This document shows positions 3,610-3,789 of a stretch of 4,103 nt of DNA, piece after piece (the stretch's first letter is position 1; each line of letters starts with the position of its first letter). The stretch comes from a virus. Lineage: Duplodnaviria > Heunggongvirae > Uroviricota > Caudoviricetes. The DNA lies in IMG/VR virus record IMGVR_UViG_2693429582_000015. One strand, written 5' to 3'. Both the position numbers and the translations under genes were made by a program. The notes beneath the pieces are model-generated. The model was not told the DNA's origin. It was given only the letters and a program-made list of their open reading frames with translations, and ran no database searches.

Positions 3610-3789
3610 CTAAATGAGCGGCTCTTCGGGTTTGCTTCCGGCTGACTGACCGGCGCTGATTTTCTCAGCGGCCCTTTTGTCAATCTGCCTGCGCCAGCAA
3701 TCGCGCACTGCCCTGTACCCACCCGAAAGGAGATACAGCACACAGACCACCGTACAGAAGTACAGCATTAACTGGTTCAGAAATGTCAT
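3610..3789 (-). CDS. Small single-pass membrane protein (59 aa), absent from the ORF track (below length threshold)
   Basis: Hand translation of minus strand from ATG 3789..3787 to TAG 3612..3610: MTFLNQLMLYFCTVVCVLYLLSGGYRAVRDCWRRQIDKRAAEKISAGQSAGSKPEEPLI. One hydrophobic helix (LMLYFCTVVCVLYLL) followed by a basic segment (positive-inside). SD-like GGAAAG 6 nt upstream. Resembles small membrane proteins found upstream of holins in lambdoid/Stx prophages (possibly DUF1378-type; unverified). Confidence 0.6.
   Translation of the reverse strand: MTFLNQLMLYFCTVVCVLYLLSGGYRAVRDCWRRQIDKRAAEKISAGQSAGSKPEEPLI

Follow-up and report, generated by a model that had tools for sequence, protein, structure and literature searches.

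The DUF1378 gene and its neighbours

The window, by which we mean the whole stretch of 4,103 nucleotides that was analysed, is the late/lysis region of an Escherichia coli Stx-type lambdoid prophage. Every recognisable gene in it lies on the minus strand. Read in the direction of transcription, the 3' end of a NanS-p esterase gene is followed by the genes for DUF1378, DUF826, an S21-type holin, a lysozyme and Ant, a 50-aa ORF, Rz/Rz1 and a homologue of PerC. The features are given below in the same order.

3925..4103, minus strand: 3' end of a NanS-p-type sialate O-acetylesterase gene, which leaves the window (C-terminal match to DUF6645)
3808..3923, plus strand: candidate Esr41/PasA-type small RNA (sRNA) gene, with TTGACA at 3808-3813, a 17-nt spacer and TAAAAA at 3831-3836
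3795..3800, minus strand: weak Shine-Dalgarno-like motif GGAAAG, 5 nt 5' of the ATG, read from the sequence
3610..3789, minus strand: DUF1378 family gene, 59 aa (ATG 3789-3787, stop codon 3612-3610)
3715..3783, minus strand: predicted single transmembrane helix, codons 3-25 of DUF1378 (hydropathy, near-invariant columns, AlphaFold2)
3324..3569, minus strand: DUF826 gene, 81 aa (Pfam PF05696; RefSeq 81-aa CDS from the ATG at 3569)
3275..3314, minus strand: intrinsic-terminator-like hairpin (13 pairs) with a T-run, between DUF826 and the holin gene
3031..3246, minus strand: S21-type class II holin (pinholin family), 71 aa (Pfam Phage_holin_2_1, E 2.1e-32; RefSeq class II holin family protein)
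2493..3026, minus strand: lysozyme, 177 aa (Pfam Phage_lysozyme; hydrophobic N-terminus MSRKLRYGLSAAVLALIAAGASAP)
1649..2218, minus strand: P22-type antirepressor gene (P22_AR_N and ORF11CD3), between lysozyme and Rz
1500..1652, minus strand: 50-aa hydrophobic ORF, MMEWWLMISDKLITLAKILCVIVGISFLVILVAIFFSTAWRVLTLSGLVG (PHROG 4906; hypothetical protein WP_000455402.1)
1025..1492, minus strand: Rz
1087..1272, minus strand: Rz1, the true o-spanin, embedded in Rz
247..561, minus strand: PerC homologue

Bases 126-4103 are 100% identical to prophages of E. coli O157:H7, O45, O26 and other STEC genomes, and the esterase fragment is 100% identical to the end of a 645-aa SASA esterase in a related locus (L002). 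The identical locus in O157:H7 strain MB41-1 has no stx gene nearby. The Stx phage ArgO145 is annotated in the order stx, esterase, DUF1378 (gp76), DUF826, holin and lysozyme, and altogether 308 phage records match the stretch that bears DUF1378. The first 125 bases of the window lie outside the 100% identical STEC matches; matches over the full length reach only 98.3% and come in three pieces (IS3-family insertion).

The lysis genes themselves show several individual features. The holin starts with MNQMEK and has its start methionines at M1 and M4 with no intervening lysine. In phage 21, the S holin starts with MKSM, and the extra positive charge makes S21-71 an antiholin; judging from its sequence, the longer product of the holin in the window may be without such a charge. 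The N-terminal segment of the lysozyme is predicted to be SAR-like. The cassette is split by the antirepressor gene, an insertion that is found in many Stx-type loci, while the same site in relatives can contain ANT, DUF1327, a Dam-type methylase or ParDE. Also located inside the cassette is the 50-aa ORF, which overlaps the end of ant by 4 nt, stops 7 nt short of the Rz start and, like the DUF1378 gene, is shorter than the 60-aa cut-off of the ORF list compiled earlier.

A conserved reading frame of the DUF1378 family

The ORF at 3789 to 3610 on the minus strand starts with ATG, contains 59 codons and is translated as MTFLNQLMLYFCTVVCVLYLLSGGYRAVRDCWRRQIDKRAAEKISAGQSAGSKPEEPLI. A previous sequence-only reading had proposed an unannotated 59-aa membrane protein at this site, given without a strand, and had attributed its absence from the ORF list to a length cut-off. 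The ORF exists as claimed, and it is missing from the list because its 59 residues are one fewer than the default of 60. The term unannotated holds for that list alone; the identical sequence is present in RefSeq as the DUF1378 family protein WP_000143463.1, which is also annotated in the MB41-1 locus, and phage records in RefSeq are annotated likewise. The same reading had mentioned DUF1378 as an example of what to search for, and this guess was exact. The protein matches Pfam PF07125 with a score of 128.9 bits (cut-off 25) and an E-value of 7.7e-38, with residues 1-59 aligned to model positions 1-59, and PHROG 494 with an E-value of 5.7e-39 over positions 1-59 of 59. The gene is a full member of this family of Stx and other lambdoid prophages, with which it agrees in length and in neighbours, and it differs from the other members by only a few substitutions, such as Cys31.

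The plausible Shine-Dalgarno sequence noted earlier is present at positions -11 to -6 as GGAAAG, which is weak. At the same spacing, the relatives contain the purine-rich motifs GGTGAG, AAGGTAAGG and GGAG, which are equal or better matches, and a purine-rich motif is retained at this position across 31 upstream variants.

The window contains 45 ORFs of at least 30 aa, so the length of the 59-aa ORF is by itself not significant; it is homology and conservation that raise it above chance. The ATG-initiated frame is unbroken in all 103 related loci, which represent 23 distinct coding sequences. No internal stop codon was found in the DUF1378 frame of any sequence, while each of the five other frames contains one to six. 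Among the E. coli copies, the variable sites number 37, 24 and 53 at codon positions 1, 2 and 3, respectively, so that third-position changes prevail. The dN/dS ratio, estimated with the Nei-Gojobori method for pairs without saturation, ranges from 0.15 to 0.3 and is about 0.2; for example, the comparison of the window with the type represented by P0029 gave a dS of 0.50, a dN of 0.11 and a ratio of 0.23. Thus, the frame is kept across related prophages under purifying selection.

The sequence-only reading had also pointed to an overlapping ORF of 139 aa in another frame and had considered its N-terminus to be of low quality. This suspicion was borne out, in that Pfam DUF826 spans only residues 59-133 and several relatives have stop codons in the frame of the upstream extension. 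What looked like one ORF of 139 aa consists of the DUF826 gene and a fortuitously open 5' extension. The actual DUF826 gene starts at 3569 and is therefore separated from DUF1378 by a spacer of 40 nt, which means that the two genes do not overlap. Both questions on which the proposed gene had been made to depend, namely whether its frame is conserved and whether the alternative 139-aa frame is favoured, were answered in favour of the 59-aa frame. Random ORFs of this size are common, as the count of 45 in 4.1 kb shows, but the family match over the full length, the purifying selection in the 59-aa frame, the stop codons that relatives carry in the alternative frame and the position of the DUF826 domain, which starts only at residue 59 of the 139-aa ORF, exclude a chance ORF with the 139-aa frame, or none, as the true coding sequence. 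We conclude that the 59-aa ORF is a genuine gene, which encodes a protein of the DUF1378 family.

Two database proteins, P0126 and P0131, contain a DUF1378 frame that runs into DUF826, in one case through a frameshift into the 139-aa frame and in the other through the loss of the stop codon. They were considered as Rosetta-stone fusions and set aside, because the gene calls appear to be frameshifted or truncated; both are probably artefacts of sequencing or gene calling.

Taxonomic distribution

The taxonomic breadth of the family was drawn from protein databases and IMG/VR, the GTDB species representatives giving a single DUF1378 locus, in Cedecea. Of 5,426 complete E. coli genomes, 1,004, or roughly one-fifth, contain a gene of the type in the window, with a median of two and a maximum of seven copies per genome, almost all of which are chromosomal. 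The gene is real but ordinary: its family is catalogued in Pfam, and the gene is routinely annotated in publicly available genomes of E. coli. Escherichia, Shigella, Pantoea and Cedecea are the sources of the named relatives, and the proteins are 57-64 aa long in Escherichia and Shigella, 54 aa in Cedecea and up to about 88 aa in Pantoea, unassigned viral contigs and isolated phages. The isolated phages are BUCT708 of Stenotrophomonas and EKP1 of Elizabethkingia. When 1.8 billion representative proteins were searched exhaustively with a profile, only 45 matched at E-values up to 0.001, and about 140 viral contigs in IMG/VR contain divergent members. In the full texts searched, DUF1378 and DUF826 are mentioned only in passing, on one occasion as ORFs of unknown function located between nanS-p and S, and no paper assigns a function to them.

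Architecture of the protein

The protein has a molecular mass of 6.7 kDa and an overall pI of 9.0. In agreement with the one clear transmembrane helix that had been noted from the sequence, it contains a single hydrophobic segment, with a Kyte-Doolittle maximum of 1.98 in a 19-residue window at residues 3-21. The basic C-terminal region described in the same reading was found in part: residues 26-39 carry six positive and two negative charges, while the final ten residues range from neutral to acidic (KPEEPLI). AlphaFold2 predicted, with modest confidence (mean pLDDT 66), a single helix that spans residues 3-50, with a disordered stretch behind it.

An alignment of close and distant relatives gave the family consensus M-[TS]-F-x5-L-L-Y-F-[CS]-T-x-V-[CS]-x-L-Y-L-x-[SA]-G-G-[YW]-x-x-[IV]-R-x-[YW], in which the conserved core of the transmembrane helix is LLYFCTxVCxLYLxSGG[YW] and the residues L9, L20 and G24 are invariant. 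Conservation lies mostly within the first 35 or so residues and is confined to the membrane helix and the basic stretch behind it. The C-terminal tail is variable, both in length (the proteins range from 50 to 88 aa) and in composition, being rich in either Ala, Lys and Glu or Ser, Thr and Pro. The confinement of the conserved residues to the helix and the juxtamembrane segment suggests that the activity of the protein probably lies within the membrane.

DUF1378 is predicted to be a single-pass inner-membrane protein in an N-out/C-in orientation, because its N-terminus is uncharged and the flank past the helix is strongly basic, as expected from the positive-inside rule. In this layout, a periplasmic N-terminus of about two to five residues would be followed by the membrane helix at residues 3-25 or thereabouts, a basic juxtamembrane helix in the cytoplasm and a disordered tail. 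With a predicted periplasmic part of only a few residues, any activity would be exerted in the membrane or at its cytoplasmic face. We are confident of the identity of the gene and of the architecture of the protein as described here.

The protein was also compared to other families. It does not resemble an o-spanin of the Rz1/LysC type, as it contains neither a basic n-region nor an L-x-x-C lipobox, and many of its relatives are Cys-free. None of the holin and antiholin models matches DUF1378, and searches of Pfam, PHROGs and NCBIfam return only DUF1378/PHROG 494 and a marginal match to PHROG 8301, a family that appears to have been built upon a read-through DUF826 ORF. Scans of DUF1378, DUF826 and the 50-aa ORF against NCBIfam and PADLOC gave no matches, and the PADLOC defence models gave nothing at E-values up to 0.1 for the DUF1378 protein in the window and two relatives. 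A profile search against the PDB gave matches at E-values of about 0.01 to the membrane helix region of TRAP-gamma, which we take to be chance matches between hydrophobic segments.

Terminator and expression

In the window, a strong hairpin with its T-run occupies 3314-3285 in the spacer that separates DUF826 from the holin gene. Each of the 26 variants of this spacer contains a hairpin at the same position; its arms differ among the variants yet still pair, and most variants also have a T-rich tail. A second, small hairpin spans the Shine-Dalgarno and start region of the holin gene. We considered that the terminator may mark the border of a self-contained accessory unit and rejected this explanation. 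A similar terminator is located on the sense strand 5' of S in enteropathogenic E. coli (EPEC) E2348/69, which has no DUF1378 or DUF826, and the terminator therefore seems to be part of the layout of the late operon.

During late transcription in lambdoid phages, the Q-modified polymerase is expected to read through a terminator of this kind. A scan of the window for sigma-70-like promoters found none on the sense strand. Upon induction with mitomycin C, nanS-p mRNA increases by 1-2.4 logs (PMC10462455), which is consistent with Q-dependent late transcription. Because the gene order is invariant in 95 lambdoid loci, no promoter was detected on the sense strand and nanS-p is induced, it can be inferred from the context that DUF1378 is probably transcribed together with nanS-p from the Q-dependent late promoter. 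The protein would then appear together with the lysis proteins.

Genomic contexts of DUF1378

In lambdoid prophages, the order esterase, DUF1378, DUF826, S21-type holin and lysozyme was found in 95 of 95 loci, as far as the contigs reach. The DUF1378 gene adjoins the lysis cassette in these loci, yet DUF826 and the terminator stand between the gene and S. In prophage PP2 of EPEC E2348/69, the next genes after the esterase gene are those of a class II holin cassette, and both DUF1378 and DUF826 are missing, which shows that the DUF1378 gene is dispensable for lysis.

The same three genes occur in Mu-like prophages of E. coli, in which DUF1378 is 48-54% identical to the lambdoid type and is located between a gene for a SASA-DUF6645 esterase of 684-735 aa, without a DUF1737 domain, and DUF826. 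The block (loci L096-L100 and L103, at locus coordinates of approximately 2700-5600) is placed after the genes for the tail fibre and tail-fibre assembly and before com/mom, and no holin gene was found near DUF1378 in these loci. The block consisting of the esterase gene, DUF1378 and DUF826 has moved between lambdoid and Mu-like prophages. The position of the Mu-like esterase gene beside the tail-fibre genes raises the question whether the esterase is associated with the virion. Tail genes are also found next to DUF1378 in Cedecea neteri, where it is located after a tail-fibre-like ORF and before a Dam-type methylase gene, and in one further locus (L177), where it follows a tail-fibre assembly gene.

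The contexts of the divergent members were examined in 55 loci with distinct proteins. The start codon of DUF1378 overlaps the stop codon of the upstream gene by 4 nt (ATGA) in 33 of these, and the upstream gene in such loci encodes an Rz-like i-spanin or a LysC-type o-spanin, as judged from similarity to the tested representatives, which match PHROG families of Rz-like spanins or Pfam LysC. Another two genes are located at most 60 nt past a spanin gene, so that DUF1378 is found directly behind a spanin gene in 35 of the 55 loci; three genes follow a small post-spanin ORF, and 14 follow an esterase gene. Upstream of the spanin genes there are endolysin genes of the Phage_lysozyme (31 of 76 scanned neighbours), Muramidase or GH19 type and holin genes that belong to at least four Pfam families. 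A true o-spanin is present as an embedded LysC ORF in L101, and the phages BUCT708 and EKP1 have the same gene order as the spanin-coupled lysis cassettes. In several divergent lineages (L101 at 4288-6243; L104, L105 and the L112-L143 types), another small membrane family, DUF7940 (68-92 aa), is encoded between the endolysin and spanin genes.

A putative role in lysis

The main argument for a role of DUF1378 in lysis is that its link to the lysis cassette persists despite changes in the types of holin and endolysin. The translational coupling to spanin genes in the distant members points in the same direction, although this evidence is circumstantial. Unrelated accessory genes are often inserted at the ends of lysis cassettes, and synteny is therefore weak evidence of function on its own. 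Against a role in lysis stand the Mu-like and Cedecea contexts, which are away from lysis genes, the PP2 prophage of E2348/69, which is without the gene, and the conserved terminator that separates the gene from S in the window. On balance, the interpretation that we consider the most likely, if only tentatively, is that DUF1378 is an accessory protein that the lysis module does not require and that tunes the timing or efficiency of lysis. According to this model, the helix would contact the holin, the SAR domain, the spanin anchor or a host membrane protein inside the membrane, and thereby shift the timing or efficiency of lysis.

Accessory regulators of lysis that are encoded in or beside the lysis cassette include S107 of phage lambda, the S21-71 antiholin and RI/RIII of phage T4, and the releasin gp25 of phage Mu reportedly has such a function as well. 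In the favoured model of a protein that tunes lysis, DUF1378 would resemble all of these in being small, late, embedded in or associated with the membrane, encoded beside lysis genes and non-essential. It differs from them in that it has no similarity to holins or antiholins and essentially no periplasmic domain, and in that its gene also occurs away from lysis genes.

A precedent for an unannotated membrane protein that is conserved in lysis cassettes and proved to be a true lysis factor is LysZ of corynephages and mycobacteriophages, which acts on a further component of the envelope (bioRxiv 10.1101/2025.06.24.661397). The two proteins are not homologous, and the hosts and envelopes are different. 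Moreover, LysZ is required for lysis, whereas DUF1378 is dispensable in related prophages.

The distant loci also allow for a broader, and less likely, generalisation, in which DUF1378 is a widespread accessory component of the lysis cassettes of Gram-negative phages and regulates the sequence of events from holin to spanin inside the inner membrane. The protein would then restrain or release the membrane segments of the spanin, the holin or the SAR endolysin, and the copy in the Stx prophages would be a relocated member of the family upstream of a pinholin gene.

A role outside lysis is somewhat less likely than an accessory role in lysis. DUF1378 would in this case be an accessory membrane protein of the moron type, involved, for example, in superinfection exclusion or host modification through a protein of the host inner membrane, and in E. 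coli it would belong to a passenger block of three genes. Such a role would account for the presence of the esterase, DUF1378 and DUF826 genes in Mu-like prophages near tail-fibre genes, com and mom, far from any lysis gene, for the position of the Cedecea gene between a tail-fibre-like ORF and a Dam-type methylase gene and of the L177 gene after a tail-fibre assembly gene, for the conserved terminator between the block and S, and for the absence of the gene from certain prophages that share this esterase and holin neighbourhood. However, most of the distant members are coupled to spanin genes within compact lysis cassettes, PADLOC returned no match, a promoter of its own was not detected and the protein lacks a periplasmic domain with which it could obstruct a receptor or injection channel from outside.

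A small inner-membrane accessory protein of a prophage with a function in superinfection exclusion is gp15 of HK97. Like gp15, DUF1378 is a small single-pass protein whose gene is located at hot spots for accessory genes, past tail-fibre genes and at the edges of late operons, as in the Mu-like prophages and Cedecea. Most relatives of the DUF1378 gene, however, are coupled to spanin genes and do not form stand-alone units that have a promoter and terminator of their own.

The DUF1378 gene is located between stx/nanS-p and the lysis genes of Shiga toxin phages, and if it is true that the protein affects the timing of lysis, the release of toxin and phages would also be affected. The family has carried the label "DUF" for two decades, and the present results add the coupling to spanin genes in distant members and the block of esterase, DUF1378 and DUF826 genes that is shared between lambdoid and Mu-like prophages.

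A candidate small RNA on the opposite strand

The candidate sRNA on the plus strand covers positions 3847-3923 approximately (about 80 nt) and is antisense to the spacer between the esterase gene and DUF1378. It ends with a 9-bp GC hairpin followed by eight T residues (3887-3923), which abuts the stop codon of the esterase gene. The Rfam model of Esr41 could be aligned in its whole length to 3847-3923, at a score clearly below the threshold (29.5 bits as compared to a gathering score of 102; E 4e-4), and no match to any Rfam family attained the gathering score of that family. Twelve upstream variants, some of them from Mu-like prophages, share the promoter-like element and the hairpin, the stem of which shows compensatory changes. 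The TTGAC[AT] motif is located 15-26 nt from the ATG of DUF1378, at a distance of exactly 18 nt in 10 of the 12 variants.

PasA of EPEC E2348/69 is an Hfq-dependent sRNA that has been validated by northern blotting, has the EHEC homologues EcOnc51 and EcOnc52, and maps between the esterase and holin genes in antisense orientation (PMC8550237 table S6; bioRxiv 10.64898/2026.05.13.724894). In an alignment with PasA, the candidate in the window showed the same position and partial correspondence in sequence. Since E2348/69 contains PasA and no DUF1378, an sRNA at this position is independent of DUF1378.

The divergent arrangement of an sRNA beside a small hydrophobic ORF resembles loci of the tisB/istR type. 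DUF1378, as a single-helix protein of fewer than 60 aa whose ATG lies 18 nt from the conserved promoter-like element of an Esr41/PasA-like sRNA on the opposite strand, could accordingly be taken for a type I toxin, that is, a small hydrophobic peptide that damages the membrane and is curbed by the adjacent sRNA. We consider this very unlikely. The predicted sRNA starts 55 nt or more 5' of the start codon and overlaps neither the ribosome-binding site nor the coding sequence. E2348/69 has PasA but no DUF1378, PasA acts in trans on many targets via Hfq, and in most of the distant members the coupling to spanin genes leaves no space for such an sRNA. In addition, DUF1378 matches no known toxin family, and nothing specifically supports a toxin function.

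The promoter-like element of the sRNA candidate also explains why a motif is conserved 5' of DUF1378. The sequence GTCAAC upstream of the ATG was considered as a regulatory site of the DUF1378 gene, and it is better interpreted as the -35 element of the putative sRNA gene on the opposite strand.
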